From a virus (taxonomy: Duplodnaviria > Caudoviricetes): DNA of 55,491 bases. Where the stretch lies: positions 1 through 55,491 of the IMG/VR virus record IMGVR_UViG_3300021964_004668; one strand, 5' to 3'. The notes under the pieces are model-generated. The model had not been told where the DNA came from, ran no database searches, and saw nothing but the letters and a program-made list of their open reading frames with translations. How positions within the stretch are numbered: position 1 is the first letter of the stretch; the number at the start of each line of letters is the position of its first letter. Positions 2,265-47,126 of this stretch are shown piece after piece. The position numbers were made by a program, and so were the translations under genes.

Positions 2265-2272
2265 TATAAATA
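2265..2272 (+). promoter_or_regulatory. T4-type late promoter for hsp20
   Basis: Intergenic TATAAATA. Confidence 0.8.
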
Positions 2273-12315: not shown

Positions 12316-12323
12316 GTATTACT

Positions 12324-25937: not shown

Positions 25938-26375
25938 ATGATTATGATTGCTGTTGTTTCTAAGGGTGGACGAAAAGCGCATCGTGAGTTGGCTGAGAAG
26001 GTCTGTTACTTCATGATCAAAAAGTTGATGCCTCGCCACCGCAAAATCGTGGTCGGTATCGAGTTTCAAGCGAACTTGGAAAAGAATGACGGTATGATGG
26101 CGTATGCCATGGACTTGGAAGACCGAGTCTTCGAGATCGGTATTGACCGAGACTTGATGAAGAACCACGGTCTTCGTGAGTTCGTCACTGCGGTCTGTCA
26201 CGAGATGGTTCACGTGAAGCAGTATGTCAAGGGTGAACTGAAGTACACGGGTGGCAAAGAACTTTGGAAGGGTCGGGACTGCACCGACATGGAATACATG
26301 GAACAACCATGGGAGAAGGAGGCGTATCGCCTTCAGGACAAGTTAGCGTTAGAAATCTGGAATGAGGTCATGTAA
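25938..26375 (+). CDS. zinc metallopeptidase-like protein (SprT-like)
   Basis: HEMVHVKQY (HExxH) and PWEKEAY. Confidence 0.75.
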   Translation: MIMIAVVSKGGRKAHRELAEKVCYFMIKKLMPRHRKIVVGIEFQANLEKNDGMMAYAMDLEDRVFEIGIDRDLMKNHGLREFVTAVCHEMVHVKQYVKGELKYTGGKELWKGRDCTDMEYMEQPWEKEAYRLQDKLALEIWNEVM

Positions 26376-27526
26376 TGGACAATAGGGTAGCAGAGGTTCT
26401 GTGGCGGGAGCAGTCTCGGCAGAATAACACCATCGAACTGATTGCGAGCGAGAACTTCGCGTCCCAGTCTGTCATGGATCTTTGCGGTAGCGTCTTTACC
26501 AACAAGTATGCCGAAGGGTATTCTGGTAAACGGTACTACAACGGATGTGACCATATGGATGAGATCGAAGATCTCGCCATTGAACAAGTCAAACAACTCT
26601 ATGGTTGTGGGTTTGCCAATGTGCAACCCCACTGTGGAGCGAATGCGAATACCGCGATCTATCTTGCCTTCCTAGAGCCAGGAGATCGAATTCTGGGCAT
26701 GGATCTTGCTAGTGGTGGTCATCTGTCGCACGGTGCGTGGGTAAACATCTCCGGTAAGGTCTATGAGTCACACTCTTATGGAGTCGATGAACAAGGATTC
26801 TTGGACTACGCAAAGATCCTTGATCAAGCGATCAAGGTCAAACCCAAGATGATCGTAGCGGGTGCCAGTGCGTATTCTCGTCGCATCAACTGGTCGATGT
26901 TCCGTGAGATTGCTGATCATGTCGGAGCGTACCTACTGGTCGATATGGCGCACTACAGCGGTCTGGTTGCTGGTGGTGCATATCCAAATCCATTACCATG
27001 GGCAGACTTCGTTACATCGACCACCCATAAGACTCTGCGAGGGCCACGGGGCGGAATGATCCTATGGAACAATCCAGACTATACCCGTAAAATCAATAGT
27101 GCCGTATTCCCCGGCTCTCAGGGTGGCCCTCTGATGAACATTGTCGCCGCAAAGGCGCAGTGTTTCATTGAGGCGAATACTGATGAGTTCGGAGTCTATG
27201 CTCATCAGGTGATCACGAATGCGAAAGAGATGGCGCGTGTATTCAAAGAAAATGGATATAAGTGCTTGACAGATGGTACAGATTCGCATATAATACTGCT
27301 TGACTTGGGAGACCATAAATTGAGTGGCCGACAAGCAGCAGATCTATTAGAATCAAAAGGTATCACCGTTAACAAAAACGGTGTGCCCAATGACCCACGA
27401 TCTTTCGTGGAAACCAGTGGTATCCGAATCGGTACTGCCGCAGAAACCACGAGGAATCCGAATCGTGATCGTTTCGAGGGTATTGCTGCAAGGATTTGTT
27501 ACATTTTAGATAACGGAGTAGTGTAA
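26375..27526 (+). CDS. glyA: serine hydroxymethyltransferase
   Basis: LIASENF, NKYAEGY, GGHLSHG, DMAHYSGLV, PLP-lysine motif STTHKTLRGPRGG, SGIRIGT. Confidence 0.97.
   Translation: MDNRVAEVLWREQSRQNNTIELIASENFASQSVMDLCGSVFTNKYAEGYSGKRYYNGCDHMDEIEDLAIEQVKQLYGCGFANVQPHCGANANTAIYLAFLEPGDRILGMDLASGGHLSHGAWVNISGKVYESHSYGVDEQGFLDYAKILDQAIKVKPKMIVAGASAYSRRINWSMFREIADHVGAYLLVDMAHYSGLVAGGAYPNPLPWADFVTSTTHKTLRGPRGGMILWNNPDYTRKINSAVFPGSQGGPLMNIVAAKAQCFIEANTDEFGVYAHQVITNAKEMARVFKENGYKCLTDGTDSHIILLDLGDHKLSGRQAADLLESKGITVNKNGVPNDPRSFVETSGIRIGTAAETTRNPNRDRFEGIAARICYILDNGVV
27266..27294 (+). promoter_or_regulatory. sigma70-type promoter inside glyA
   Basis: TTGACA-17nt-TATAAT, exact consensus. Confidence 0.65.
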
Positions 27527-27986: not shown

Positions 27987-28663
27987 TGTTTGAACACGTA
28001 AACGTCGAACTGACTGAGATGGACGCAGTCACTACCGACTCTGGTCGTAAGTACAAAACGCCAGAGGGTATTAACCTACCGTCCATCACAACGGTTCTAT
28101 CGATACTGTCACGCGACTCTATCGCCAAGTGGCGTAAGCGAGTCGGTGAGGCAGAAGCCAACAAGATCTCTACCCGCGCATCGGGTCGTGGTACTCGTGT
28201 GCATGAAATTATCGAAAAGTACATCAATAACGAGGAGGATTTCCGAGATGGTTACACACCCGATATTATTTCTTCTTTTAATGATGTTCGGGATATTCTC
28301 GACAATCGTATTGGGCGCGTATATGCCCAAGAAGCTCCGTTATACTCTAATCACCTTGGCGTGGCTGGTCGCGTGGATTGTGTTGCTGAGTTCGATGGTA
28401 AACTATCAATCATAGACTTCAAGACTTCGATGAAACCTAAACGACTTGAGTGGATCAAGAACTACTTCATGCAAGAGTCTGCCTACGCCATCATGTGGGA
28501 AGAACGCACGGGTATGCCGATCACTCAGTTGGTCACCATTATCTCAGTTGACAATAATGAACCTCAAGTGTTCATTGAGCACCGTGACAATTGGGTTAAC
28601 AGCCTGCAAAATACCATAGAGAAATACAACGAAGAGCAAAATTCGACTTCCATTTTATTATAA
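27986..28663 (+). CDS. PD-(D/E)xK exonuclease
   Basis: PSITTVL, GTRVHEIIE, AGRVDCV, IIDFKTS, QESAY. Confidence 0.88.
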   Translation: MFEHVNVELTEMDAVTTDSGRKYKTPEGINLPSITTVLSILSRDSIAKWRKRVGEAEANKISTRASGRGTRVHEIIEKYINNEEDFRDGYTPDIISSFNDVRDILDNRIGRVYAQEAPLYSNHLGVAGRVDCVAEFDGKLSIIDFKTSMKPKRLEWIKNYFMQESAYAIMWEERTGMPITQLVTIISVDNNEPQVFIEHRDNWVNSLQNTIEKYNEEQNSTSILL

Positions 28664-28666
28664 ATA
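28659..28666 (+). promoter_or_regulatory. T4-type late promoter heading the internal-protein cluster
   Basis: TATAAATA. Confidence 0.8.
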
Positions 28667-28707
28667 GTGTTATAATACACTTTTGTAACAATGGGAATAA
28701 TCGAATA

Positions 28708-29781
28708 ATGCAGAAGTTTAATACCTTTCTGTCTGAGGGATTAAAAGCAGAGGATTATGAAGCATCTATCGTGATGGGATTCTACGAACTTACTGGTAGA
28801 CCCATTACTGATAATCCTCTAAAGTACGGTATCTCTGATAAAGTATTCAATATTATTAAGGGTAATCCTAAAGCATTAGACGCGGGTCGCAAGATCGCTG
28901 AGTCGGTGTTAAAACAATACCCCGCATTGAAGAACAAAGAAGCAGAACAGTATGGTCGTGCAAAGGCGACACTGACTAACTTCTGGAAATCTCATGGTGC
29001 GTCTGACATTACACCCAAGACAGATGTTTTGATTGGTGATATGCGATTCTCTGTTAAGATTGGTATCGCACAGTTGATGTCTGGCGGTAAAGCAGAATCG
29101 ACTGCCACCTTCGAGGCCGCAACCAAGAACTCCAACCCCGAACTCAAGAAATCCCCACAATACAAAGCAACGGTTGATGTCCTAGAAGGATTTGTAAAGA
29201 ACACTCTCGCACCATCTCAATTAAGACCCTTGATTAAGTCTGGTACTGACCCTGTAGTAAACAAGGCAGAGAAAGCACATAAAGACTGTATGGAAGAGTT
29301 GGGTAAACTGTTCAACGAATCTAAATCATTCAAGGTTGAGTTTGCACGAGAGGCGATGTCTGGATACGAGAAGTTTGGAAGAACCTCAAACGCTGCCGCT
29401 GAGTTTATGTTAGTTGCCTCGGCCGATGGTGGTACAGTTAAAATACATTCGGTAGATGATGATGCTTACTGTTTGAAGATTGCAAATGCAATGAAACTAC
29501 AGGCAAGATTCAAGACATCATCTCGTAAAATCAAAAAGGTTAAGACTGGTGAGTACAACTACTGGTCAGTTATATCTCTTATTGTAGACTCTATGCAAGA
29601 CTCTGAGGAACTCAGTGAGAGTATAGAGTTACAGGAATTAAAACTGTTAAAAACTATTCGTGGGTGGATGTCTAAGACTTGGAATAAGGTTACGGCATTC
29701 TATAAAAAAGGTGTTGACAAACTAAAGTCATTTCTTGGGGCAGAACCAGACCCGTCATTCCGAAATAAGATAAAATTCTAA
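28708..29781 (+). CDS. putative internal head protein with nuclease-like motif
   Basis: CTS-like start MQKFNTFLSE; TPKTDVLIGDMRFSVK resembles a PD-(D/E)xK-type core. Confidence 0.55.
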   Translation: MQKFNTFLSEGLKAEDYEASIVMGFYELTGRPITDNPLKYGISDKVFNIIKGNPKALDAGRKIAESVLKQYPALKNKEAEQYGRAKATLTNFWKSHGASDITPKTDVLIGDMRFSVKIGIAQLMSGGKAESTATFEAATKNSNPELKKSPQYKATVDVLEGFVKNTLAPSQLRPLIKSGTDPVVNKAEKAHKDCMEELGKLFNESKSFKVEFAREAMSGYEKFGRTSNAAAEFMLVASADGGTVKIHSVDDDAYCLKIANAMKLQARFKTSSRKIKKVKTGEYNYWSVISLIVDSMQDSEELSESIELQELKLLKTIRGWMSKTWNKVTAFYKKGVDKLKSFLGAEPDPSFRNKIKF

Positions 29782-31001
29782 TGAACTTCACCGATTTCAT
29801 AACAGAACAGAAGAACACTCACATGACCCACATTGAGGACAAGGTTCTCTATGGTGGTGTGAGTGGTACGCGACAGGCCATCAATGCGTTACGCGAGTTG
29901 CGTGACATGTTGGCGGGTCAGACGAGTTCTAAACTATCTACCAAGTGGGATGGTGCTCCCGCAATCTTCTGCGGTCAAGATCCCACCGATGGCGAGTTCT
30001 TTGTTGCCAAGAAGGGTGTGTTCGCAAAGAACCCCAAGGTCTATAAGACTGCGGCGGAGATCGATGGTGACATGTCTGGTGACCTTGCAGACAAGATGAA
30101 ACTTGCATTAAAACATTTGCCAGAACTTGGTATAAAGGGTATAATTCAGGGTGACTTCTTGTTCTCAAAACCAGATCTCAGCACCGAGACTATTGAGGGT
30201 CAGAAGTATGTGACCTTCCACCCTAACACGATTATCTATGCTGTACCCTATGATCAGGCAGATGCACTGCGTAAGGCCAAGATCGGTATCGTATGGCACA
30301 CCACCTACACGGGCAGTTCGTTTGAGTCACTGAAAGCATCCTATGGTGTGGACGTATCCAAGTTCAAGAACTCCGCAAACGTCTGGTCACAAGACGCCAT
30401 GTTGCGTGATGTGTCCGGTGCGACAATGAATAAGAGAGAGACTGCCGAAGTGACGAAGCATCTGTCCGATGCGGGTAAGATCTTCAATAAGATCTCCGGT
30501 ACGACACTGCGTGAGTTAGAACGTAATCAAGACCTTGCTCAACTTATTGAACAGTACAATAACACTTTTGTGCGGCAACAAATGGTCATTTCTAACACTA
30601 ATACGCACGTAACAGGTTTAATCAAGTGGTTGAATGATAAGTTTCAGAAAGAGATGGATAAGAGAAGTACCGCTGCGGGTAAGAAGACCCAGCAGGACAA
30701 ACTGGATGCACTCATGAAATTCTTCTCTCCGAAGAACAAAAAGAATCTAGTTGCAATGTTTGATTTGCAAAAAAGTATTGTTCTTGCGAAGTTAAAACTT
30801 ATAAATAAACTTAATAGCATATCTTCATATGACACTTTTGTTCAGACTAAGAAAGGTTATAAGGTTAGAACGGGTGCAGAAGGATTTGTTGCTATTGACA
30901 AATTAGGTGGTGATGCGGTCAAGTTGGTTGACCGTCTAGAATTTTCGTATAATAACTTCAGTCCAGATATACTGAAGGGATGGGATAAACCAAAGAGGTA
31001 A
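29781..31001 (+). CDS. RNA-ligase-like nucleotidyltransferase (DUF6267-like), putative internal protein
   Basis: MNFTDFITE start; KWDGAP (motif I), QGDFLF, EGFV (IV), KLVDR (V). Confidence 0.7.
   Translation: MNFTDFITEQKNTHMTHIEDKVLYGGVSGTRQAINALRELRDMLAGQTSSKLSTKWDGAPAIFCGQDPTDGEFFVAKKGVFAKNPKVYKTAAEIDGDMSGDLADKMKLALKHLPELGIKGIIQGDFLFSKPDLSTETIEGQKYVTFHPNTIIYAVPYDQADALRKAKIGIVWHTTYTGSSFESLKASYGVDVSKFKNSANVWSQDAMLRDVSGATMNKRETAEVTKHLSDAGKIFNKISGTTLRELERNQDLAQLIEQYNNTFVRQQMVISNTNTHVTGLIKWLNDKFQKEMDKRSTAAGKKTQQDKLDALMKFFSPKNKKNLVAMFDLQKSIVLAKLKLINKLNSISSYDTFVQTKKGYKVRTGAEGFVAIDKLGGDAVKLVDRLEFSYNNFSPDILKGWDKPKR
30800..30807 (+). promoter_or_regulatory. possible internal late promoter
   Basis: TATAAATA about 200 nt before ATG 31004. 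Confidence 0.5.
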
Positions 31002-31003
31002 AC

Positions 31004-31480
31004 ATGGCTAAACCAATGAGCCTAAAGACATTCCTGAACGTGGATTACACCCAGACGGGCGATCCGCAACAAGCGTACAACGCAAAGAAGCGCAAGCGAG
31101 ATAGCGGTGCGGGAACTGATGCTGAGTATTCATCAACGAATCCCCCGAATGAGGCACTCAACGTACAACAACGTATGAAGTTGTCTCGCTCTCTCAAAAA
31201 GAACAAAGCAAAGATTGCTATGGGTCGCAAACGTGCTGCCCGTAAAGTTGCTAATGTTGACACTCTAAAGAAACGTGCACAGAAACAGGCACGTATGCAG
31301 TTCCTCAAGAAGATTACCAAAGACACCCCCAAGGACGAATTGTCTCTGTCCCGTAGACAGGACATTGAGAAACGTCTAGATAAGATGAAACCCAAGATCG
31401 ACAAACTTGCACGGAAGTTGCTTCCTCAAGTTCGTAAGGGTGAACTTGAAAAGAAACGAGGTGGTCAAAAGAGTGATTAA
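31004..31480 (+). CDS. highly basic hypothetical protein
   Basis: K/R-rich; GAGGT SD. Confidence 0.75.
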   Translation: MAKPMSLKTFLNVDYTQTGDPQQAYNAKKRKRDSGAGTDAEYSSTNPPNEALNVQQRMKLSRSLKKNKAKIAMGRKRAARKVANVDTLKKRAQKQARMQFLKKITKDTPKDELSLSRRQDIEKRLDKMKPKIDKLARKLLPQVRKGELEKKRGGQKSD

Positions 31481-33446
31481 GAATTTCAAATCCTATCTGG
31501 TCGAAGAGGCTAAAGAGGTTTATTTTACCTTTGGTAGAATGAATCCGCCTACTATCGGGCATGGGAAAGTATTAGAGACTATCGCAAAGAAGGCTGGTGG
31601 CGCTGACTGGAAGGTCTATGTGTCTCAGTCTGTTGGCCCCAAAGATCCTCTATCCTACTCCGACAAGGTCAAACACCTACGCAAGATGTTCCCCAAGTAT
31701 GGTCGTAACATCATGGTGGACAAGGGTGTTAAGAATGTATTTGACATTGCTGCCAAGTTATACGATCAAGGATACAAACGAATCACCATGGTAGTCGGAG
31801 AAGACCGTCTACGTGAGTTTGAAGTCCTACTGAACAAATACAACGGTAAGAAAGCACGCCACGGGTTCTATAACTTTGAGTCCATCAATATCGTGTCTGC
31901 GGGTCGCAGAGATCCCGATGCAGAAGGTGTCGAAGGTATGTCTGCGTCCAAGCAACGTGCCAATGCCAAAGAGAACGATTACCAATCATTTACTCAGGGT
32001 GTTCCCAAAGGTATGTCCGACAAGGACACTCGTAGGTTGTTCAATGATGTGCGTAAGGGTATGGGTCTCAAGGAAGAGACCTCATTCAAGCGTCACATTG
32101 AGATGCCTACTGTTTCCGAAACAAGAGAACAGTTTGTCAAGGGTGAACTCTTTGAGTTGGGTGATACTGTTGTTATCAAAGAAAGCGAAGAGGTCGGTGT
32201 CGTATCTCATCTGGGCGCAAACTACGTTATCGTAGAGTCCGGTGACCGTAAGATGCGTAAGTGGTTGGATGCGGTAGAACTGGTCGAGAAGAAGTTGACC
32301 CCCGCTGAGATCAAGAAACGCGAAGAGATTGCGAAGGCAATGGAACGCGAGAACCCCGACATGCCGATGGACAAGAAGATGGCCATCGCGACTGCAACCG
32401 CAAAACGAGTTGCAGAGAAACAAGATCCTGACATCAAGGACAGAGAAGGGACTCAACCCGCACGTTATCACAAGGGACTCAAGAAGTCTACTAAGGCGAA
32501 ACGTGACGCACACTTCAAGAAGCATGGCAAGAAGGCGGATGATGATCCGTCTGCGTACAAACCTGCTCCTGGCGATAAGACCGCTAAAACCAAACCGTCC
32601 AAGTACACCAAAGCATTCAAAGACATGTATGAGGAAGTATCTCAGAAACAACTCAATGACCTTGAGAAGTTTGCTGATAGACTACTCAAGAAGTTCGATG
32701 TCGATGTTGAGTTCACACGTCACTTCGCTGACCGTATGAATGACAAACGCAACAAACCTGCTATCACAGTTGCAGAATTGCAACGTGTGTTTAAGAAGAT
32801 TGCGAAGAACAAAGCAAAGAACATTAGACAGAATCCTGATAGTGAAGCAGTCATTAAAGACTTACAGATGGATTTGAACTTACCTGTTGTTATCAAGTAT
32901 GACCGCAACAAGGATGAGTTCGAGGTAGTCAACAAGACTATCATGCGTAAGAAAGATTTCAAGACTACTTCTAAGACCATCACCACCGAAGAGAATGGTG
33001 CTGGAGATGAGGGTACTGATAAGTTAGTCAAGAAGTACAAGAAAGATACTCCTCTAGAAGAAAGAAAGTTTATTGACTTTACAAACCCTGTATTTGGTGA
33101 TATACTAGACAAATTAGTTAATGGTGACCTCTACAAGAAAGTGATCCGTAAGTATCTAGATGCAAGACGTAAGAATCCTAAACAGGGTCAAGCATTGTTG
33201 GTCAAGATTGCTCGTCAATATGGTGTCCCCGCGAAACAGACTCAGAATCTGTTCTTCAAACTCTTGGATAAGGGTGCCCTACCTAAGCACCTTGACTGGA
33301 GAGACAAGGCATTTGGTGAGGATGCTGTCCAACAAGCACGAGATGCAATCGCTCGTGAGAAAGAACAAGACAAGGCGAAGCATGATCGTATTCTAGATCG
33401 TGCGCGACTGGCCCGAGCAAAGGCAAAGAATAGAGAAACCAAATGA
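31473..33446 (+). CDS. HIGH-family nucleotidyltransferase fused to several small domains
   Basis: GTG start after GAGGT; FGRMNPPTIGH, DPLSY, VGEDR, MSASKQR; C-terminal modules separated by xxE sites. Confidence 0.85.
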   Translation: MIKNFKSYLVEEAKEVYFTFGRMNPPTIGHGKVLETIAKKAGGADWKVYVSQSVGPKDPLSYSDKVKHLRKMFPKYGRNIMVDKGVKNVFDIAAKLYDQGYKRITMVVGEDRLREFEVLLNKYNGKKARHGFYNFESINIVSAGRRDPDAEGVEGMSASKQRANAKENDYQSFTQGVPKGMSDKDTRRLFNDVRKGMGLKEETSFKRHIEMPTVSETREQFVKGELFELGDTVVIKESEEVGVVSHLGANYVIVESGDRKMRKWLDAVELVEKKLTPAEIKKREEIAKAMERENPDMPMDKKMAIATATAKRVAEKQDPDIKDREGTQPARYHKGLKKSTKAKRDAHFKKHGKKADDDPSAYKPAPGDKTAKTKPSKYTKAFKDMYEEVSQKQLNDLEKFADRLLKKFDVDVEFTRHFADRMNDKRNKPAITVAELQRVFKKIAKNKAKNIRQNPDSEAVIKDLQMDLNLPVVIKYDRNKDEFEVVNKTIMRKKDFKTTSKTITTEENGAGDEGTDKLVKKYKKDTPLEERKFIDFTNPVFGDILDKLVNGDLYKKVIRKYLDARRKNPKQGQALLVKIARQYGVPAKQTQNLFFKLLDKGALPKHLDWRDKAFGEDAVQQARDAIAREKEQDKAKHDRILDRARLARAKAKNRETK

Positions 33447-33661
33447 ATCTATACGAAGCGGATGATGCCCTGAAAAAGAAAGCAGAGAAATCTGGTATCT
33501 CTTATGGGACTCTCAAGAAAGTTTACAACCGTGGTGTTGCCGCGTGGAAGACTGGTCATAGGCCAGGCACTACTCCTCAACAGTGGGGTTATGCCCGTGT
33601 CAATGCCTTCATAGTCAAGAAGAAAAAAGGTGGTCTGAACCACGATAAGGATCTGGCATGA
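33443..33661 (+). CDS. DUF5824-like basic protein (C-terminal half)
   Basis: VYNRGVAAWKTGHRPGTTPQQWGYARVNAF; family name recalled from memory. Confidence 0.6.
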   Translation: MNLYEADDALKKKAEKSGISYGTLKKVYNRGVAAWKTGHRPGTTPQQWGYARVNAFIVKKKKGGLNHDKDLA

Positions 33662-33954
33662 AATCATACTGGGACATAGTCACAGAACTTAAAGAGGGAA
33701 AGAACGATTACCCTCTGTACCATAAGACCTATTCGGGTGCAATGAGTGCCGCATACGCATTCGCAAAGAAGAAAGGGTTTGAGGTAGACAAGGACGATAT
33801 TGATAGTAAGGTGGCAATGGGGCCCAAGAAACCGTCCAATGGTAAGACCAATAGTTTTACTCTCAAGTTGGATGGTGAGAAACGCAAGATGCTTGCCGTA
33901 CAGGTTACAAACCTTGATAATAAACGATACGAACTAAACGCATACATCACTTAG
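33658..33954 (+). CDS. hypothetical, putative internal protein
   Basis: MKSYWDIVTELKE start; ATGA overlap. Confidence 0.7.
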   Translation: MKSYWDIVTELKEGKNDYPLYHKTYSGAMSAAYAFAKKKGFEVDKDDIDSKVAMGPKKPSNGKTNSFTLKLDGEKRKMLAVQVTNLDNKRYELNAYIT

Positions 33955-33962
33955 GACTCAGA

Positions 33963-35201
33963 ATGAAAAGACTATCAGAAATCAGTGAAGCGATTGACTT
34001 CATGAAGACAGCCAAAGCTCTGGAAGATTACGCCAAGAAGTCTGGCGGTATTGATAAAGAATCTTTCCAGAAGGTTGCTGCATATGTACGTGAGATTGGT
34101 AGGAACTCATCTACCATGGTACAGAACAAGGCGTTTACGGCGATGAAGAAGTTTATCGGCGGTATGGACACTGATCCTCGTGATGGTGTGTTGCAGATCC
34201 TACAGAAACATGGTATGTTCAAGAATGGTCGTTTGATGCAGGAGTCTGTAGAAGAGATCACTGAGTTCTCGGATGCTCAACTGGCACAACTCAAGAAGGC
34301 ATATCAAAACCTAGAAAAGATCAATGTTGCTTCACCTACCTATAAGAAGTTGAAGAAAATGATCGCAAGCATGGACGCAAAGATGCTTGAGAAGGTTGCT
34401 CGTGCGAAGGTCAAGTTTGTATCTCAGATTGCTGCAAGGGAACTCGCTGCAAAGGGCGTCAAGTTAAAAGCAAAGGACTACATGGAAGAAGTCCAAGAAG
34501 CAGTCTCTCCTGCTCAACAGGCTGCGATTGCAATCTCTAAGAAAGAGAGGGGTGAGAAACCAAAAGCAATGAAAGAAGACGGTCATAATGATGTAGAGTC
34601 TATGAAGAATAAAGTCAAGACTGCTATGTCTGCACTTCAAAAGATGAATACTGAACTTGGTAAATTGGGCGATCAAGACTCGTTACCAACTTGGTGGACA
34701 AATAAAGTTGCTGTTGCGGTTGATAAACTTGATGGTATGGCAGACTATATTGATACCCAAGTTGAATCTGTTGACGAATGTGCATCTGAGGATGACTTCA
34801 AACCACATATGATGTATGATCCTAAGACGGGCAAAGGTTACAAGGCAAATAAGTATGCTGACCATGTTCGTATGGACAAGATGGGTTACACCCACGAGAA
34901 ACCAGAAATCAAAGAAAGAAAGATTGACCCTGCCGATGTAGATAATGACGCGACTGATGATGACCGTAAGGCGGCTGATAAGAATGTTGTTATGCAAATA
35001 CGAAAAGCAGCGGATCTAGAAAAAGGATCTGATATTGAGTTCAAGGATGGTAAGAAAGGTAAACTGTCTCAAGCGGATGCCAAGAAACTGACCAATATGT
35101 TCAACACCCTGAAACGACCCGCTGACAAAGAGAAGTTTCAGAAGGTGGTCTCCAAGGATCTTCGATCTGTCAAAGCCCTACTAAAGAGGTTAGGACGATA
35201 A
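33963..35201 (+). CDS. modular charged protein, putative internal polyprotein
   Basis: MKRLSEISE start; helical modules separated by Glu-rich linkers. Confidence 0.7.
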   Translation: MKRLSEISEAIDFMKTAKALEDYAKKSGGIDKESFQKVAAYVREIGRNSSTMVQNKAFTAMKKFIGGMDTDPRDGVLQILQKHGMFKNGRLMQESVEEITEFSDAQLAQLKKAYQNLEKINVASPTYKKLKKMIASMDAKMLEKVARAKVKFVSQIAARELAAKGVKLKAKDYMEEVQEAVSPAQQAAIAISKKERGEKPKAMKEDGHNDVESMKNKVKTAMSALQKMNTELGKLGDQDSLPTWWTNKVAVAVDKLDGMADYIDTQVESVDECASEDDFKPHMMYDPKTGKGYKANKYADHVRMDKMGYTHEKPEIKERKIDPADVDNDATDDDRKAADKNVVMQIRKAADLEKGSDIEFKDGKKGKLSQADAKKLTNMFNTLKRPADKEKFQKVVSKDLRSVKALLKRLGR

Positions 35202-35202
35202 G

Positions 35203-36510
35203 ATGGCACAGTTTAGTACCACCACAGGCGATTTACTAAGAAACAACGAAACAATCTACGAAGTTGTTATGACATCTGGACAGGCAGGCCCTTCCACATA
35301 TGTTCCTAATGGTAATTTGAATACCTCGTCTGATGCATTTGGTAGAACGAGAATCTCGCAACCACTAACATTGTTTGATAGTTCGCACAGATATGCTGAT
35401 AACGATTTGTGGGCAGAGGATACTACTGGAACTGCAAGTAGCACATTTAACTCAAATGCTGGTTTGGTTGAACTTGATGTTGGCAGTGCAAGTGGTGATG
35501 AGATTCTTCGTGAGACAAAAAAAGTTTTCTCATATCAGCCAGGCAAGTCATTGTTGATTATGAATACATTTATGTTCGCTGAACCTAAAACAAACCTAAG
35601 ACAGCGTGTGGGGTATTTTGGCACAGACAATGGTATTTACTTAGAACAAGATGGAACTACTGTTAATTTTGTTGAGAGAAGTTTAGTCACTGGTTCTGTA
35701 ACCGAAAGTAAAATTCAACAATCTGATTGGAATGTTGATAAACTAGATGGAGATGGGCGTTCGGGAGTAACATTAGACCTAACCAAAGCACAAATTCTTT
35801 GGATGGATTTGGAGTGGTTAGGACTTGGTAGTGCAAGAGTAGGATTTATTATCAATGGACAGTTTATTTGCTGTCATATCTTCCATCACGCAAACTTGAC
35901 GGACTCAACGTATATCACAACTGCATCTCTTCCTCTAAGACAAGAGATTACAAATACTGGATTAACCTCTGGTGCAAGTCAAGCAAAACAAGTTTGTGCT
36001 ACTGTTATGTCTGAGGGTGGTTATGAACTGAGAGGTAGACAACACGCAATTGGAATTCCGATTACATCCGCCTATTCTTTGACAACTGCGGGAACATTTT
36101 ATCCTATCGTTTCAATAAGATTAAAGTCTACAAGACTAGATGCGATTGTTATTAATACCGCACTGTCTATATTGGGTGTTGGTAATGGTATAAACTTTGC
36201 TTGGCGACTTGTTGCAGGAGGAGTTGTTACTACCGCATCTTGGACAAGTGCTGGAGCAAATTCATCTGTTGAATATACAATATCTGGAACGGCACATGAT
36301 GGTGGCGGTAGAGTTCTTGCTACGGGTTTCATCAACTCATCTAATCAAGGTTCGCCAACAATTGATATTCTAAAGGAAGCCTTGTTTAAGTTTCAGTTGG
36401 AAAGGGATACATTTACAGACACTCCCGAACCACTAACATTCTTGGTGGCGGCTGCAACTGATAGTCAAGAAATATTTGCGTCAATGGATTGGGAAGAAAT
36501 TACAAGATAA
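35203..36510 (+). CDS. putative virion structural protein (beta-rich)
   Basis: T/S/G-rich; DAFGRTRIS, YQPGKS, WLGLGSARVGF; in late region. Confidence 0.6.
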   Translation: MAQFSTTTGDLLRNNETIYEVVMTSGQAGPSTYVPNGNLNTSSDAFGRTRISQPLTLFDSSHRYADNDLWAEDTTGTASSTFNSNAGLVELDVGSASGDEILRETKKVFSYQPGKSLLIMNTFMFAEPKTNLRQRVGYFGTDNGIYLEQDGTTVNFVERSLVTGSVTESKIQQSDWNVDKLDGDGRSGVTLDLTKAQILWMDLEWLGLGSARVGFIINGQFICCHIFHHANLTDSTYITTASLPLRQEITNTGLTSGASQAKQVCATVMSEGGYELRGRQHAIGIPITSAYSLTTAGTFYPIVSIRLKSTRLDAIVINTALSILGVGNGINFAWRLVAGGVVTTASWTSAGANSSVEYTISGTAHDGGGRVLATGFINSSNQGSPTIDILKEALFKFQLERDTFTDTPEPLTFLVAAATDSQEIFASMDWEEITR

Positions 36511-37025
36511 TGAAAACATTTAACGAACATTGTGACTGCGGATCAGAGTCAGATCTGGTAGAGAACAATATCTTCCGTGTGGGATCAGAGAAGTACTTTG
36601 AGTACTGGCGTGACCTACGCGAACAGTATCACAATGGTGAACTGCAAGTACAACCCCACGAGGTAGACATCATGGAGTCTGACCTTGGAGAGTTTGCCGA
36701 GTTCAATGGTGAGAATGTTGCACTGGACTGCATCTTTGAAGCAGAGAAGAAACAACCAGAACTGAACAAACCGAAGGCGGGTGGGCCCAAGAAGTACTAT
36801 GTGTACGTCAAAGATCCGTCTACAGGTAATATCAAGAAGGTGTCTTGGGGTGATACGACTGGACTCAAAGTCAAGTTGAATGATCCGAAGGCACGTAAGT
36901 CATTTGCTGCTCGTCATAAGTGTGACCAACAGAACGATAAGACTAAGGCGGCATACTGGGCATGTAGATTGCCTAGATATGCAAAGCAACTCGGTTTATC
37001 GGGTGGTGGGAGTTTCTTTTGGTGA
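36510..37025 (+). CDS. hypothetical, putative internal protein
   Basis: MKTFNE start; basic C-terminal domain KKYYVYV...ARKSFAARHKC...AAYWAC after CIFE. Confidence 0.75.
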   Translation: MKTFNEHCDCGSESDLVENNIFRVGSEKYFEYWRDLREQYHNGELQVQPHEVDIMESDLGEFAEFNGENVALDCIFEAEKKQPELNKPKAGGPKKYYVYVKDPSTGNIKKVSWGDTTGLKVKLNDPKARKSFAARHKCDQQNDKTKAAYWACRLPRYAKQLGLSGGGSFFW

Positions 37026-37288
37026 AACCTTACCATGAACTGAAGGTGATTCATGGAAGCATCAGAACCTTCAGCAAAGATGTTAATGAAGAAGAGTTGG
37101 TTTGGCACAGGGATAAAGAAAAGAGACGTATCATTGTGCTGGAGGGTTACGGCTGGAAACTACAGTTTGACAATCAAGAGCCGACACAATTACTGGAACA
37201 ACACAGTTATAATATACCAGAAATGGTATATCATAGGATCATAAAAGGTCAAGGTGACCTAGTTTTAAGGGTATATGACGGACAGTGA
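37019..37288 (+). CDS. cupin-like hypothetical protein
   Basis: LVWHRD ... IPEMVYHRIIKG. Confidence 0.65.
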   Translation: MVKPYHELKVIHGSIRTFSKDVNEEELVWHRDKEKRRIIVLEGYGWKLQFDNQEPTQLLEQHSYNIPEMVYHRIIKGQGDLVLRVYDGQ

Positions 37289-37965
37289 AGATTATAAATC
37301 TATTGTATCGTGGTGGTGCTGGTGGTGAGTTTTTCGGTGGTTTGTTACAAGAGTTAGATGGGGTCGCTGAGAAACCTTTACATAAAGAAATGAATACAGA
37401 ACGCTGGTTTCTGAAACGAGAGGATTACCAGTCACACGAGATAGAGGTGACTAGGAACGATCCTTGGAGAGTACAGAAACCTAAGTGGAATGAGAAGCTT
37501 TGGAACGTCAGACTAGACCATGGTTATGGGTTTGTCCTAAACCAAGAGTTCTGGTCTGACTATCTCTGGAATGATTGGGAAGAGACAAAGACGATCATAT
37601 TCATGCCTCGAAACAGGAAGAGTCTTGAATTTACAGAACGTCTAGCGAAACTGAAACTGGTGAAACCATCAGATCATGCTCAGGGTCAAGCCATGCTTGA
37701 CGATGGGATACTAGATGTAGACCAGTTTTGGAATAGACCTTGGGAGTCCATGGCACATTACTTTCATGTGTACATGGAGACTATCCCAGATGACCATGAC
37801 TTTCTAATGGTCGATCCGTATGAGTTGTTGTTTGACTCGACGGGGACGGTAGGGGAACTTTCCCGTATCGGTGAGTATTTGGGAGTAAAAATCCCTAAAC
37901 ATTGGGAATATAAGATCTGTAGTTACAGATTGGAAAACCAAAATCTTATAAATAAGAATAGTTAA
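37285..37965 (+). CDS. hypothetical protein, possibly sulfotransferase-like
   Basis: N-terminal YRGGAGGEFF loop; C-terminal YELLF...IGEYLG. Confidence 0.5.
   Translation: MKIINLLYRGGAGGEFFGGLLQELDGVAEKPLHKEMNTERWFLKREDYQSHEIEVTRNDPWRVQKPKWNEKLWNVRLDHGYGFVLNQEFWSDYLWNDWEETKTIIFMPRNRKSLEFTERLAKLKLVKPSDHAQGQAMLDDGILDVDQFWNRPWESMAHYFHVYMETIPDDHDFLMVDPYELLFDSTGTVGELSRIGEYLGVKIPKHWEYKICSYRLENQNLINKNS
37947..37954 (+). promoter_or_regulatory. T4-type late promoter
   Basis: TATAAATA 39 nt before ATG 37994. Confidence 0.75.
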
Positions 37966-37993
37966 CTCTATATAAAAATGGGAAGTAGATGAT

Positions 37994-38278
37994 ATGGCTG
38001 AATCGGGTACACAGACGCAACGACTAGATCGTATTGAAGAGAAGATAGATAGACTATCTGAAGCAATGATTAGTCTTGCCCGTGCGGAAGAAAAGTTGAT
38101 CGCCATAGAGAAGAACAACCATAATAACTTTGATAGGATGAATAGATTCTCCGCCAAGTTAGATGATATAGAGAAAAAGGTAGATGACAACGCGAGAACG
38201 GTTGCCATCATTAATAAAGTAGTATATGTTATTTCGGTTGCACTTATCGGTGCAATTGTGAAATACTTCTGGATGTAA
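37994..38278 (+). CDS. coiled-coil protein with C-terminal TM helix
   Basis: RLDRIEEKIDRL... plus hydrophobic C-terminus. Confidence 0.75.
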   Translation: MAESGTQTQRLDRIEEKIDRLSEAMISLARAEEKLIAIEKNNHNNFDRMNRFSAKLDDIEKKVDDNARTVAIINKVVYVISVALIGAIVKYFWM

Positions 38279-38289
38279 ACGGAGACAAA

Positions 38290-39264
38290 ATGAAAACATC
38301 TGATATCGAAAAACTAGGTGCTGCATGGGCCTCCGTGGTGAATGCTAATCTTGGTGAGAAAAAACTAGATCCTGTTAACGATAAAGAGAACGACAAGAAG
38401 TTCAAAGATCGTAAGGACAAGGACATCGACAATGACGGCGATGTAGATAGTTCTGACGAGTATCTCCACAAAAGACGTGCCGCTACTGACGATGCGATTG
38501 ATGGTGGTAAGAAACCAGCCAAGAATGTGAAGAAAGAATCTGAAGACGAGGAAGGTGAAGAGAAGAAAAAGAAACCTTTCCCACCTAAGAAAGACGGCGA
38601 AGAAAAAGACGCTGAAGACAATGGTGACGAGTCTGAAGACGAAGACGAAGAAAAAGAAGCACCTAAAGTTGCTGGTAAGAAGGACGACAAGAAGAAAGTT
38701 GCCTCTAATGCCAAGACCGCAGAGATCTCCAAGATCGGTGAAGCAACCGAAGAACTTCTGAATATGTTTGAGTACATTCTGGGTGAACGCAAAGAGACTA
38801 AAGGTGCTACCAAACCTGAAGGTATCATGGACAAGGAATCTCCTAAGTCTAAAGAGTTTGCCGACAAGCATAAGGTTGAAGTAGAGGACGAAGAAAAGAC
38901 TCACGAAACTGCAACCAAGGCTGGACAAGCAACTAAGGCAAAGTCTGGTAAGCGTCCACAGGATAATGCTGCGGGTGACACCAATGTTGTGAAATCAACA
39001 GAAGCACCTGTAAAGGAAGAGCACGAGAATTGTGGTACCGAAGATTGCTGCGGTGAGTGTGATGTTGAGACTATTGAAGAGAAAGCACTGGTAGTAGATA
39101 CTTCAACTCAGAATGGTTCTGTATCTCTTGTTGATATGGCACGTGCCCATCTTGCTGGTGACATGAAGCGTGACACCGAGAAAGAAAAGAAAGCATATGA
39201 TGCTCGTACCAGAGAAGCAAAGGCATTCTTAGAAAGAATGGCAAAACGTCGAGGAGATTGTTAA
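38290..39264 (+). CDS. highly charged low-complexity protein with DxDxDG motif, possible core/scaffold protein
   Basis: DIDNDGDVDSSDEYLHKRR; E/K/D-rich; GGAG SD. Confidence 0.75.
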   Translation: MKTSDIEKLGAAWASVVNANLGEKKLDPVNDKENDKKFKDRKDKDIDNDGDVDSSDEYLHKRRAATDDAIDGGKKPAKNVKKESEDEEGEEKKKKPFPPKKDGEEKDAEDNGDESEDEDEEKEAPKVAGKKDDKKKVASNAKTAEISKIGEATEELLNMFEYILGERKETKGATKPEGIMDKESPKSKEFADKHKVEVEDEEKTHETATKAGQATKAKSGKRPQDNAAGDTNVVKSTEAPVKEEHENCGTEDCCGECDVETIEEKALVVDTSTQNGSVSLVDMARAHLAGDMKRDTEKEKKAYDARTREAKAFLERMAKRRGDC

Positions 39265-39611
39265 TGGGAATTAAAGCCCCTGCATGGTGTGCAAACGCAG
39301 TTCCTACTTCACGTGGTTGGGAAGACCCACAGTCAGGTGAAGTATATGTGTCCGCTCGTTTCACACAAGAACAACTTGATGAATATAACGGTGTCGTTAC
39401 ACAACCTGAAGTTCTGACCGAAGTTCCTAGAAATGATTTTGAGAAGACTCCTCAGATGTTGACCGAAGCCCCCGTGGGTAACAAGTCACTTGATGAGATG
39501 ACGAAGACAGAACTTGAAGCACTTGGTCGCCAACACGGTGTTGAACTAAATCGTCGTGAAAGTAAACAGACCCTTCTAGAAAAGACGAGGAATATCCTCA
39601 AGGGTTGGTAA
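39264..39611 (+). CDS. hypothetical protein with C-terminal HeH/Rho-N-like motif
   Basis: MTKTELEALGRQHGVELNRRESKQTLL; GAGGAG SD. Confidence 0.65.
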   Translation: MGIKAPAWCANAVPTSRGWEDPQSGEVYVSARFTQEQLDEYNGVVTQPEVLTEVPRNDFEKTPQMLTEAPVGNKSLDEMTKTELEALGRQHGVELNRRESKQTLLEKTRNILKGW

Positions 39612-39615
39612 GATG

Positions 39616-39633
39616 TGCCCCCGCAAGGGGGCA
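39616..39633 (+). other. GC-rich GNRA hairpin (terminator-like, no U-tract)
   Basis: TGCCCCC-GCAA-GGGGGCA, intergenic. Confidence 0.6.
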
Positions 39634-39654
39634 TAAAATCATATAAGTAGTTAT

Positions 39655-40023
39655 ATGATGAAACTCACTAAAGACAATGTGACGGTGTATGCCGCCCAAA
39701 ACTATCACAATCCTAGATGCATTGATAGTGAAGAGTTTTTTGAAGACCTAAAGAAGTTCAAGTACGTCAAACGATTACTCAATCGTTATCGTGATACTGG
39801 CGTACTTTCAGAACGTCTCATCCTCAATCATCTTATCGTAATATTTAATGTGTTCGGTTACGAGGCAGGACTAAACATCCTTGAACTCAAGATCGAACTT
39901 GAACACTGGGGTACATTGAAACCCTTTCTAATATTTCTCAGCGCAATCAAGAACACCGAATATACCAACATTGAGATGGATAATTTGGTAATTGAACGAC
40001 TGCGTGAGATCAAAAATGTATAA
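39655..40023 (+). CDS. T4-like phage hypothetical protein
   Basis: EEFFEDLKKFKYVKRLL, ERLILNHLIVIFNVFG; TATAAGTA 5 nt upstream. Confidence 0.8.
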   Translation: MMKLTKDNVTVYAAQNYHNPRCIDSEEFFEDLKKFKYVKRLLNRYRDTGVLSERLILNHLIVIFNVFGYEAGLNILELKIELEHWGTLKPFLIFLSAIKNTEYTNIEMDNLVIERLREIKNV

Positions 40024-40026
40024 ATA
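40019..40026 (+). promoter_or_regulatory. T4-type late promoter (leaderless geometry)
   Basis: TATAAATA-GACTT-ATG. Confidence 0.8.
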
Positions 40027-40031
40027 GACTT

Positions 40032-40631
40032 ATGGGATTACTCAAATCAGCAGCAGACCTCGTCTATACGATCCGGTTCTTGAAACTGTTAGTGACTCCG
40101 TTTACGGACACTGAAGCATACAAGGCAGGTATTGTAGATGAAGACGGGAAGAAACGCAAGGACTTCAATACGAATAGTACTGATGACCGTGAAGCGTATC
40201 GCAGCCATTACACTCCATTCCACCGTCTGGTATTCAACCTCAAACGACTCATGGCAAAGGTGCCTGGCGGACAGTCAGTGGTCGCACGATATGGTGCAGC
40301 ACTCGCACTGATCAAAGAGAATGGTCAACTATCAAATTCTAAACTCATGCAGATCCACAAAGAGACAGGCATAGACATCCTTGATGTACTCGCAGAAGAC
40401 TCTCAATGGTTTATGTTGGAAGACAAACAACTAGGGCCAGGCGTCTATCGATTCAAACACGATACCATCACTATAGACTGTGAAGACATAGTGAAGAAAG
40501 ATGACAGGGTACGAGTCTTTGAAAGTGACTCAAGTCCAGTTCATGAAGTTTTAGGTATTGATATATACAAGGGAATGCACCTGAACTCTAAACAGTGGGT
40601 ATACTTCTCATCAGGAGAGATTACGCGATGA
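40032..40631 (+). CDS. T4-like phage hypothetical protein
   Basis: DLVYTIRFLKLLVTPF, GIVDEDG, YTPFHRLVFNLKR. Confidence 0.8.
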   Translation: MGLLKSAADLVYTIRFLKLLVTPFTDTEAYKAGIVDEDGKKRKDFNTNSTDDREAYRSHYTPFHRLVFNLKRLMAKVPGGQSVVARYGAALALIKENGQLSNSKLMQIHKETGIDILDVLAEDSQWFMLEDKQLGPGVYRFKHDTITIDCEDIVKKDDRVRVFESDSSPVHEVLGIDIYKGMHLNSKQWVYFSSGEITR

Positions 40632-40813
40632 AGGGATTCAAACAGTTCAGCGAAGAGATGACTGCCACAGGTGCAGTCGCTGGGGCAGGGGACGATAGTG
40701 AAACCGTACCAGTATATCTTGGCAAGAAGAAAAAGAAACGAGATGAGAGACCAGATGTCTTGAAACGTTTTATAAGTAAACAAGAAGAATCGAAAAAATA
40801 CTGGAGTAAGTAG
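40628..40813 (+). CDS. small putative internal protein
   Basis: GGAG SD; MKGFKQFSEE start. Confidence 0.7.
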   Translation: MKGFKQFSEEMTATGAVAGAGDDSETVPVYLGKKKKKRDERPDVLKRFISKQEESKKYWSK

Positions 40814-45517: not shown

Positions 45518-45922
45518 ATGTGGATATATGAAGGTAAGGAGTTTGAACCAGAAGACGGATTCTTGGAGCAATACCAAGGATTCGTCTACTGCTTGACGGA
45601 GTTAAGCACTGGTAAAAAGTATATTGGTAAGAAGTTCTTCTGGAAACCCAAGATACTCCCTGTTACGAAAACAAGAAAAAGACGCAAACGAACACGAGTC
45701 CAATCGGACTGGCGTGACTACTATGGTTCCTCAGAACAGGTAAAAACTCTCGTAGAAGGGGGTCAGGAGTTCCATAGAGAGGTTCTCCGGTTGTGTCATA
45801 CTAAAGGTGAGTGTTCGTATTACGAAGCAAAACTACAGTTCCAATACGATGTTCTGTTGAGTGATGAATACTACAATGAGTTTATAGGCTGCAAGATTCA
45901 TGCAAAACATATTAGATCGTAA
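45518..45922 (+). CDS. GIY-YIG endonuclease (catalytic domain only)
   Basis: GFVY...KKYIGKK, YYGSS, YYEAKLQ, YYN. Confidence 0.8.
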   Translation: MWIYEGKEFEPEDGFLEQYQGFVYCLTELSTGKKYIGKKFFWKPKILPVTKTRKRRKRTRVQSDWRDYYGSSEQVKTLVEGGQEFHREVLRLCHTKGECSYYEAKLQFQYDVLLSDEYYNEFIGCKIHAKHIRS

Positions 45923-47126
45923 CCTTATATGTGAAATATTTGCCGGTGAGGATATCGACACTCACATAAACCAGATGAAGTGGCGACTATTTGATGCGGG
46001 TGCGAAGAAGGGTGACCTTGTTACGATATCGATCATGGGAGTCAATGTCAAACATGTTGGTGCAATACTTGCATGTGCTGAGATGGGACTGAGAGTATTC
46101 ATTCTAGACAGTCCCGCTACCAAGGAGTCTCTGCCCTTTACCAAACTTGCACTCCACGGCCCATCCGATTACTATATTTACAGTTCTGCCGAAGACACCA
46201 CCAAAATCTATAACGGTCTACATGACGAGATGATGAGGCGATACGGCGGAGTCAGTATTGATGCTGAGTCTCCTACGCAACACAAGTTCTTCCAAGCAGC
46301 ACCCGTATACGAAGACGATCCTTTTCTAGTCAGTTCCACATCAGGAACGACTGGGCCATCCAAACCAGTCACATTCTCTCACAAAGAGGTTGTTGGTATT
46401 GCGAAAAGAAATATAAAGATATTTGGATTCACTCGACACTCGCGAGTGATTCACTCTAGGAATCTACATCACGCTTCTGCCATGCTCACCTCACTATTAC
46501 CCAGTCTTATGGTAACGAGTGTTCGTCAAGCTTCAATCCACAACCACCACACCTTTTCAATTGGTCACGACAATTCCCATGACGAATCAATATCCTATCT
46601 AAGAGGGTTACAAGGGATATATGAGTTGGGTGCTAGTCACATTATGATACCAAACAAGAGTACACTATACGACTTCCTCAGCTCATTCTCTGGGCCTTTC
46701 CGAAAAACACTAAATATCAATATGTCGGGGTTTGTATTGGACGAAGAGTTTGTTGAACTAGCAAAGAAATATAACGTGGCATTTCAGTCTCACTATGGCA
46801 GTATCGACACCGCCATTCCTTTATTGGTAAACTATGTAAATGCTAATACTAAAATACTTCCCAATAGTCTTGGCGTATTACCGGATAACTTCTATAGGAC
46901 TACGCTGAAGTATGGTCAGATGATGGTAGAACACGAGTGGTGGGACAATCCTCGTTACATAGATGACGATATCTCATTTGTAGATGGACAATACATACTA
47001 AATAGGCAAAGAGAACCACAGATAGATATACCGGCCGGTTTTGACATAACTCCATTCTTTCAGGATACAAAGATCAATTACGAACAGTTAAGGGGGCATT
47101 TGAGTGTTATTAGTAAACGGGTGTAG
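45900..47126 (+). CDS. AMP-binding (ANL adenylating enzyme)-like protein
   Basis: GAKKGDLV, SSTSGTTGPSKPV (A3), LHHAS, HYGSID; C-terminal subdomain looks absent. Confidence 0.7.
   Translation: MQNILDRNLICEIFAGEDIDTHINQMKWRLFDAGAKKGDLVTISIMGVNVKHVGAILACAEMGLRVFILDSPATKESLPFTKLALHGPSDYYIYSSAEDTTKIYNGLHDEMMRRYGGVSIDAESPTQHKFFQAAPVYEDDPFLVSSTSGTTGPSKPVTFSHKEVVGIAKRNIKIFGFTRHSRVIHSRNLHHASAMLTSLLPSLMVTSVRQASIHNHHTFSIGHDNSHDESISYLRGLQGIYELGASHIMIPNKSTLYDFLSSFSGPFRKTLNINMSGFVLDEEFVELAKKYNVAFQSHYGSIDTAIPLLVNYVNANTKILPNSLGVLPDNFYRTTLKYGQMMVEHEWWDNPRYIDDDISFVDGQYILNRQREPQIDIPAGFDITPFFQDTKINYEQLRGHLSVISKRV

Follow-up and report, generated by a model that had tools for sequence, protein, structure and literature searches.

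The virus record IMGVR_UViG_3300021964_004668 of IMG/VR, a single contig of 55,491 nucleotides that was analyzed over its whole length (hereafter the window), carries on its plus strand a cluster of open reading frames (ORFs) between positions 28708 and 40813, several of whose products begin with a short N-terminal leader resembling the capsid-targeting sequence (CTS) of phage T4. We consider it likely that the cluster consists of late-transcribed genes for head-internal cargo of a marine T4-like myovirus and that the leaders act in the same way as the T4 CTS. The leader-bearing enzymes encoded here, which include a protein with a restriction-endonuclease fold, an RNA-ligase-like protein, and a cytidylyltransferase-like protein, are probably packaged in the head and delivered together with the DNA.

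A shared leader in a late gene cluster

A preliminary description of the window, made from the sequence alone, listed eight ORF starts in the cluster as alike, and all eight are present as written (28708, 29781, 31473, 33443, 33658, 33963, 36510, and 40628). The likeness is clear for five of them, namely MQKFNTFLSE (ORF 28708, leader of 10 codons at 28708–28737), MNFTDFITE (ORF 29781, 9 codons at 29781–29807), MIKNFKSYLVE (ORF 31473, 11 codons at 31473–31505), MKSYWDIVTE (ORF 33658), and MKGFKQFSEE (ORF 40628), all of which fit M-x(1-3)-F/Y-x-x-F/Y/I-[LIVS]-x-E. The GTG start of ORF 31473 lies within a frame that is open from TTG 31407, and it is supported because orthologues have ATG at the same codon. 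The [L/I]-x-E motif of gp21 cleavage is present and conserved at the end of the leader; in ORF 40628 the residue preceding x-E is S in the window and Y, M, or I in orthologues, which begin MK.F..F.EE. A sixth start, MKRLSEISE (ORF 33963), is an aliphatic variant, and homologues of this protein begin MKTIKEILAE, MKKLKEILAE, or MKRLSEITE. The likeness does not extend to the remaining two. ORF 36510 (MKTFNEHCDCG) matches only in part, and its leader is doubtful because conservation is limited to MK[ST]F.[ED]H, directly followed by a Cys motif. ORF 33443 (MNLYE) does not bear a leader, because its aligned residues are internal to a longer ORF in most relatives and it represents the C-terminal half of a DUF5824 domain; among the 25 commonest variants of this region only 3 (from 5 loci) begin with M. 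The N-terminus of one further product, ORF 31004 (MAKPMSLKTFLNVD; orthologues MAKPLGFKDFL.VD), is uncertain as a leader because Asp occupies the expected place of Glu and an extra residue lengthens the spacing.

The leader is enriched in the cluster, as the preliminary description would require. A strict pattern written after inspection of the data, ^M.{1,3}[FYW]..[FYWLIM][LIVFMST].E, matches the five ORFs named above among the 17 ORFs in 28708–40813 and only 2 of the 64 other ORFs of the window (one-sided Fisher p = 0.0038), these two being ORFs 10551 (MPNDIEQMLSE) and 15557 (MSKFGQVVFE). The earlier statement that early and replication genes mostly lack the pattern therefore agrees with the 62 of 64 ORFs outside the cluster that do not have it.

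Upstream of the first cluster ORF, by 42 nt, lies TATAAATA (28659–28666, plus strand), a T4-type late-promoter-like motif already reported at this position in the preliminary description. The window contains 10 copies of the motif compared with 1.57 expected, and none of 100 shuffles reached 10. Three more copies are found in the cluster on the plus strand, at 30800–30807 within the gene of ORF 29781 and ~200 nt upstream of ORF 31004, at 37947–37954, 40 nt upstream of ORF 37994, and at 40019–40026, just upstream of ORF 40032. The same motif is present just upstream of the equivalent of ORF 28708 in phage C48C1. Outside the cluster, a copy at 2265–2272 (plus strand) is located 65 nt 5′ of hsp20 (2337–2753), which suggests that Hsp20 may also be expressed late; Hsp20 has been proposed to aid capsid maturation (PMC3037559).

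The leader is conserved among relatives. In 80 IMG/VR loci, whose DUF6267 proteins (the family of ORF 29781) have an identity of 69–100%, orthologues in the families of ORFs 28708, 29781, 31473, and 40628 keep it. E10 is invariant across 61 homologues of ORF 28708, and the strict pattern is found in 67 of the 120 homologues listed for this ORF, most of the others having shortened forms such as MQPLLEA. Conserved leader residues are encoded by synonymous codons in 143 distinct leader DNA sequences (TTT 100 and TTC 37; GAA 113 and GAG 30), and this free codon use argues for selection on the peptide. Over the 80 loci, the first three start codons of 2642 plus-strand ORFs yielded 197 occurrences of the pattern, compared with 19 among 12099 in-frame start codons further downstream, although these counts include orthologues, which are not independent, as well as non-coding ORFs.

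Several observations indicate that the leader is separable from the protein that follows it. Among 110 full-length DUF6267 representatives (50% identity clusters), 35 have a strict and 49 a relaxed leader, which is conserved down to ~40% identity, and many leaderless homologues begin right at the conserved KN.H..H.ED start of the domain, where the leader ends. In AlphaFold models of ORF 28708 and of the DUF6267 protein, residues 1–10 form the only N-terminal segment of low confidence and the fold begins just after them. The slot directly upstream of the DUF6267 gene in relatives is occupied by the family of ORF 28708, by phrog_1462, phrog_2496, phrog_8438, or phrog_3060, or by a 247-aa protein, each with a leader, so that a single position in the genome hosts at least five unrelated families with this leader. 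Pfam gave no family for nine alternative cargo proteins encoded by relatives. T-even phages have variable internal-protein genes with a conserved CTS (PMC3012670), and the marine slot resembles these genes in that the cargo varies and the leader is kept. A relative that is 87% complete (147.6 kb, 205 ORFs called) has the strict pattern on five ORFs, three of them adjacent in the syntenic cluster, one elsewhere (phrog_5268), and one a probable false match at an internal GTG. A gp21-type prohead protease was found in all five related records searched, and the proteases of Methylophilales phage Melnitz and Pelagibacter phage HTVC008M begin MKLIAEQ and MKLITEE, respectively.

The leader pattern in T4 and in published virion proteomes

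The CTS mechanism is textbook knowledge for T4, and the annotated starts of T4 ipII and ipIII read MKTYQEFIAE, as the preliminary description had said of IPII and IPIII. The strict pattern matches 14 start codons in the whole T4 genome, of which 3 are among the 278 annotated coding sequence (CDS) starts: ipII, ipIII, and gp61.1. IPI, which has a longer propeptide, is missed, and the pattern is therefore specific but incomplete in its sensitivity. In CTS proteins of the T4 type the propeptide takes up the first ~10–19 residues and ends in the gp21 cleavage motif [L/I]-x-E; residues 4 and 7 of the T4 CTS govern targeting, and residues 8 and 10 govern processing (PMC9026906). The gene product gp61.1 (NC_000866, 18966–19130, minus strand) is a hypothetical protein of 54 aa that starts MKTFKEFIKE, a near-perfect CTS, and its gene is flanked by genes 61 and 41, in the slot that corresponds to that of the marine cluster.

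In Synechococcus phage S-CREM2 the strict pattern matches 10 start codons, of which 5 are among the 219 annotated CDS starts. Four of these five CDS are represented among the 52 proteins of purified virions (Table 3 of PMC10665884; Fisher p = 0.012): ORF6, an S-adenosylmethionine (SAM) hydrolase (MKDFDSFLEE), ORF14, an APH/ChoK-like kinase (MKRFDAFLTE), ORF136 (MQTFSMFFSE), and ORF154, a cytidylyltransferase (MKNFSSFLTE). The SAM hydrolase, the kinase, and the cytidylyltransferase are three of six unexpected “non-structural” virion proteins that were left unexplained in the proteome paper, which also states that kinases and cytidyltransferases are often found in cyanophage virions (PMC10665884). 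Virions of S-SM1 contain the cytidylyltransferase T4-GC190 (PMC3037559), which starts MKKFSAFLNE, and the kinase of S-CRM01, said to be virion-detected (PMC10665884), starts MISFDQFLSE. These “non-structural” proteins of S-SM1, S-CREM2, and S-CRM01 all start with the same leader as the marine cluster proteins, and ORF 31473 is homologous to the virion-detected cytidylyltransferases of S-SM1 and S-CREM2. Leaders are also seen in Syn9 gp184 (MKKFSAFLSE) and in a 108-aa ORF of S-RIM12 that adjoins a gene for a “virion structural protein” (MKSYNEFISE).

Predicted cargo and its genomic surroundings

The preliminary description labeled three cluster products as nuclease-like, RNA-ligase-like, and nucleotidyltransferase, and all three labels were borne out by fold comparisons, sequence motifs, or domain models. 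The first of these proteins (ORF 28708, 28708–29781, plus strand, 357 aa) matched nothing in Pfam, PHROG, or NCBIfam. Its AF2 model has a pLDDT of 72 (32 for residues 1–10), and in Foldseek it matched HinP1I at an E value of 9.7e-4. In VIA, HinP1I, MspI, and HhaI gave Z values of 10.5 (199 aligned residues, rmsd 4.2), 10.4, 9.7, and 6.1, with HinP1I at 10.5, MspI at 9.7, and the next row at 4.2, and the predicted model thus has a HinP1I/MspI-like endonuclease fold. The likeness to the type IIP enzymes HinP1I, MspI, and HhaI is at the level of the fold, and no solved structure was matched at the level of sequence. The catalytic motif of HinP1I and MspI has the form D...(E/Q/N/S)-x-K. Across 61 homologues of ORF 28708, D106, S115, K117, and E130 do not vary, making D-x8-S-x-K a candidate nuclease triad. 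A protein atlas gave a weak lead, a RE_HaeIII-bearing cluster at 0.86, which was taken only as a hint. Separately, the genome of Melnitz (MZ577097) encodes an annotated M.HhaI-like cytosine methylase together with a leader-bearing orthologue of the HinP1I/HhaI-fold protein (4010–5227 and 12203–13288), and the two could be a phage restriction-modification pair with a packaged nuclease.

The second protein (ORF 29781, 29781–31001, plus strand, 406 aa) belongs to DUF6267 (PF19782, 6e-102) and resembles RNA ligases, which are covalent nucleotidyltransferases. K55-x-D57-G58, E367-G368, and K381 are invariant in 76 sequences and lie in the stretches KxDG, EGFV, and VKLV; KxDG, EGxV, and xKxx we take to be ligase motifs I (with the catalytic lysine), IV, and V. 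The AF2 model has a pLDDT of 93.7, with residues 1–10 below 50. Its seven best long alignments in VIA (177–201 residues) are all to RNA ligases (Z 8.0–6.9), among them the Naegleria nick-sealing ligase (8.0), fungal Trl1 (7.9 and 7.7), T4 Rnl2 (7.3 and 7.2), and T4 Rnl1 (7.2), followed by DNA ligases (Z 6.4–5.5). Foldseek gave no match to the model at an E value of 0.001 or less and only weak ligase rows. The Z values are middling, and the assignment rests on the wide VIA search together with the motifs. The protein thus shares a fold and motifs I, IV, and V with T4 Rnl1, Rnl2, and other RNA ligases and differs from them in a helical insertion of ~130 residues between the strands that carry motifs I and IV and in the lack of a sequence match to solved structures.

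The third protein (ORF 31473, 31473–33446, plus strand, 657 aa) has an N-terminal cytidylyltransferase-like domain and a Lys-rich C-terminal part. It matches PF01467 with 23.4 bits (curated cut-off 21), phrog_3041, a cytidyltransferase family (1.7e-70), and phrog_395, and its sequence contains TIGH, fitting the (H/T)xGH motif. It also carries the N-terminal half of a split DUF5824 domain (residues 329–393), whose C-terminal half forms the leaderless 72-aa ORF 33443 (33443–33661, plus strand), which overlaps the upstream stop codon in ATGA; in relatives the C-terminal half is usually part of a longer ORF. Sequence searches of three cargo proteins and one profile against solved structures gave nothing meaningful, and NCBIfam returned no family for eight cluster proteins.

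The other products of the cluster, all encoded on the plus strand, are less readily classified. ORF 31004 (31004–31480) encodes a basic protein of 158 aa, and ORF 33658 (33658–33954) encodes a leader-bearing protein of 98 aa to which no function was assigned. The 412-aa product of ORF 33963 (33963–35201) is a mosaic, as hundreds of database proteins match only 15–30% of its length with 60–85% identity, and some proteins with modules of ORF 33963 carry PF11450 (DUF3008) or PF19141 (DUF5824); short modules seem to be shuffled among head-cluster proteins such as this one. ORF 35203 (35203–36510), which has no leader, encodes a 435-aa homologue of a cyanomyovirus “virion structural protein” (phrog_1645, 1.5e-147) and is 61–63% identical to proteins of S-RIM12 and S-RIM8 and 68% identical to a protein of HMO-2011. 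ORF 36510 (36510–37025, 171 aa) is followed by ORF 37019–37288, which has only a TTG start and overlaps its end by 7 nt. Orthologues of the latter either start with TTG (LVKPY) or run in frame from upstream residues (SGKPY); the in-frame forms suggest that ORFs 36510 and 37019 may be one protein in some relatives or may be joined by a frameshift. The leader-bearing protein of ORF 40628 (40628–40813) is 61 aa long. Its weak likeness to the N-terminal region of the S-CREM2 virion protein ORF160 (26 residues, pairwise E 0.001) was not counted as evidence, and it showed no similarity to S-SM1 gp197.

All large ORFs of the window are on the plus strand, and the window corresponds to about a third of a genome. 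PHROG and Pfam scans, on which the statements about gene content here and below are based, identified the T4-type genes for the gp62 clamp loader, RegA, gp43 polymerase, primase, UvsX, and gp41 helicase as well as genes for ThyX, SHMT, NrdA, NrdB, PhoH, and Hsp20; no tail module was found in the window, the record being this contig alone. The nearest named relatives of the cluster proteins are in phage C48C1 (65% identity for the DUF6267 protein), Melnitz (58% for ORF 28708), and HTVC008M (37–39%). The gene order after the gp41 helicase gene is the same in C48C1, Melnitz, and HTVC008M. The window also contains a CsgF/CsgG curli-like operon of the kind already known from pelagimyophages (PMC7029224). 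Based on the T4-type gene set, the gene order shared by the relatives, and the curli-like operon, we read the window as part of the genome of a pelagimyophage-like marine T4-type myovirus and do not assign a host. A megablast search against 50,697 phage records gave no DNA nearly identical to the cluster. The podovirus HMO-2011 was dropped as a relative because it has only the phrog_1645 protein in common with the window and differs in gene order and content.

Two further groups of plus-strand genes were noted. A row at 17417–22224 encodes homologues of CsgF (PF10614) and CsgG (PF03783), an ORF without known function, a FecR-domain protein, and a protein with CHASE2 and adenylate/guanylate cyclase domains. 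A sugar-nucleotide epimerase, a short UDP-glucose dehydrogenase-like ORF, ThyX, SHMT, two AMP-binding-like ORFs, and a carbamoyltransferase are encoded at 7693–9546, 13248–13943, 26375–27526, 45900–48898, and 53809–55326, and this set could serve the modification of the cell surface or of DNA.

Delivery with the DNA, alternative explanations, and implications

Cargo proteins of the cluster would be made with an N-terminal leader of ~10 residues that is functionally homologous to the T4 CTS. Aromatic or hydrophobic residues at approximately positions 4 and 7 may attach the protein to the prohead's scaffolding core, and the [LIV]-x-E end would then be cut by a gp21-type prohead protease, freeing the mature protein in the head, from which it would be ejected with the DNA, as in T4, to act early in infection. 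The predicted cargo comprises the HinP1I/MspI-fold nuclease-like protein, the RNA-ligase-like DUF6267 protein, the cytidylyltransferase-like protein, which may resemble nicotinamide mononucleotide adenylyltransferase (NMNAT), and several small or basic proteins. The earlier claim of a CTS-like leader on packaged proteins of a late cluster is well supported, though indirectly, by the register of the leaders, their conservation, their separability, and the homologues or analogues in three virion proteomes; it fails for ORFs 33443 and 36510, which do not have convincing leaders. Injection, action before transcription, and a part in anti-defence, as envisaged in the preliminary description, are inferred.

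The marine leaders resemble those of T4 IPI, IPII, and IPIII in their length of ~10 residues, in the aromatic or hydrophobic residues at positions 4 and 7, and in the [LIV]-x-E at positions 8–10, and in both systems unrelated mature proteins bear a conserved leader, the cargo locus is variable, and there is a gp21 homologue (here found in relatives). In contrast to the T4 internal proteins, which are 95–193 aa long as annotated, the marine cargo is mostly large and enzyme-like (357–657 aa), its genes lie in one late cluster between the genes for gp41 helicase and ribonucleotide reductase rather than at the T4 ip loci, and Phe is preferred at position 4 of the leaders, which are known from sequence. 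A large enzyme in a T4-type head is not without precedent: T4 Alt is a packaged ADP-ribosyltransferase whose N-terminal propeptide is removed by gp21 and which is injected with the DNA (PMC9026906). Alt differs from the marine proteins in that its leader (MELITELFDE) is not of the internal-protein type and in its enzyme family. The giant phages SPN3US and phiKZ have head-packaged ejection proteins that are cut after Glu by a related prohead protease (PMC5694885); their propeptides mostly exceed 100 residues and end in A-x-E or S-x-E, whereas the marine leaders have the length of the T4 leader.

Several points weigh against packaging and delivery of the leader-bearing proteins. The strict pattern is short and was written after the data had been seen. 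The leader-bearing S-CREM2 ORF30, a pectate lyase (MNFKKWFKE), is not among the 52 virion proteins (Table 3 of PMC10665884), and the authors of that study caution that proteins abundant during infection might be purified along with the virions (PMC10665884). The text of the published virion proteomes gives no per-residue coverage and hence nothing on cleavage after Glu, and we found no virion proteome or N-terminal sequencing for this phage or for any pelagimyophage. The window, being a genome fragment, contains no head gene, prohead protease, or scaffold. The cyanomyovirus DUF6267 homologues Syn9 gp183 and S-SM1 gp189 are leaderless as annotated, and DUF6267 proteins are therefore not packaged everywhere by way of a leader. 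Finally, the phage DNA would have to be protected from a packaged endonuclease, and the window, which covers about a third of the genome, showed no DNA methyltransferase. In T4, a CTS-fused staphylococcal nuclease can be carried inside active virus (PMC3012670), and a packaged nuclease is therefore not implausible.

The leader could also target proteins to the prohead that are components of assembly, of the core, or of DNA condensation, similar to T4 gp67, gp68, and the basic internal proteins, in which case the enzyme folds would be incidental or inactive and no payload would be injected. We regard this as unlikely, even though the cluster encodes small, basic, or low-complexity proteins (31004–31480, 38290–39264, and the C-terminal half of 31473–33446), the cytidylyltransferase gene belongs to the core shared by all 16 cyanomyoviruses that were compared (PMC3037559), which would fit a morphogenetic role, and RNA ligase 1 of T4 is annotated as a catalyst of tail-fibre attachment as well. 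Against it, the invariance of ligase motifs I, IV, and V in the 76 DUF6267 sequences and of D106, S115, K117, and E130 in the 61 nuclease-like homologues would argue that catalysis is retained, and the leader-bearing proteins of S-CREM2 persist in mature virions.

Slightly less probable again is a shared N-terminus without any role in the capsid, which would instead be bound by a chaperone or partner, signal stability, or favor translation initiation on late mRNAs. In favor of this, highly expressed phage genes commonly have Lys or Asn at position 2 and early codons rich in A/T. Against such a role, the conserved residues survive synonymous codon changes, the pattern finds known CTS proteins in T4 and four virion proteins among five matches in S-CREM2, and the end of the leader coincides exactly with the start of the folded domain. 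That a few N-termini merely resemble each other by chance or composition is very improbable despite the short and post hoc pattern, given the 197 versus 19 start-codon matches in 80 loci, the 5 of 17 versus 2 of 64 ORFs in the window, and the persistence of the leader to ~40% identity in DUF6267.

With delivery by a CTS-like leader as the favored explanation, we tentatively suggest, at somewhat less than even odds, that pelagimyophages, methylophages, and cyanomyoviruses share an ancestral CTS-based delivery system with a swappable arsenal of injected enzymes, and that the slot upstream of the DUF6267 gene is a hypervariable effector cassette. The arsenal would include restriction-endonuclease-like nucleases, RNA-ligase-like repair enzymes, NMNAT-like nucleotidyltransferases, kinases, and SAM hydrolases.

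The T4 CTS and virion-associated cytidylyltransferases of cyanophages have been published before. A targeting leader is not mentioned in the S-CREM2 proteome paper, in which the word “internal” does not occur (PMC10665884), “capsid targeting” and “internal protein” do not occur in PMC3037559, and in the pelagimyophage paper PMC7029224 we found no description of such a leader. We found no description of a CTS-like leader in cyanophages or marine T4-like phages in the open literature, a search that did not extend to subscription papers and supplements, where it may have been mentioned. Within the searched literature, the link between the CTS and virion enzymes, its extension to pelagimyophage-like phages, the endonuclease-fold and RNA-ligase-like cargo, and the variable cargo slot thus appear to be new.

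A simple leader would explain why “non-structural” enzymes recur in cyanophage virion proteomes, a presence that the authors of those studies left open. A leader that works like the T4 CTS could also provide a tool for loading foreign proteins into the heads of marine phages. If the enzymes are delivered, early roles would be possible in which the endonuclease-like protein attacks host DNA or excludes rival phages, the RNA-ligase-like protein repairs RNA such as cleaved tRNA, and the NMNAT-like protein supplies nucleotide cofactors. If this explanation is true, candidate injected effectors would be predictable from sequence alone in pelagimyophages and other uncultured T4-like phages of the sea, viruses that rank among the most abundant there and are hard to grow.

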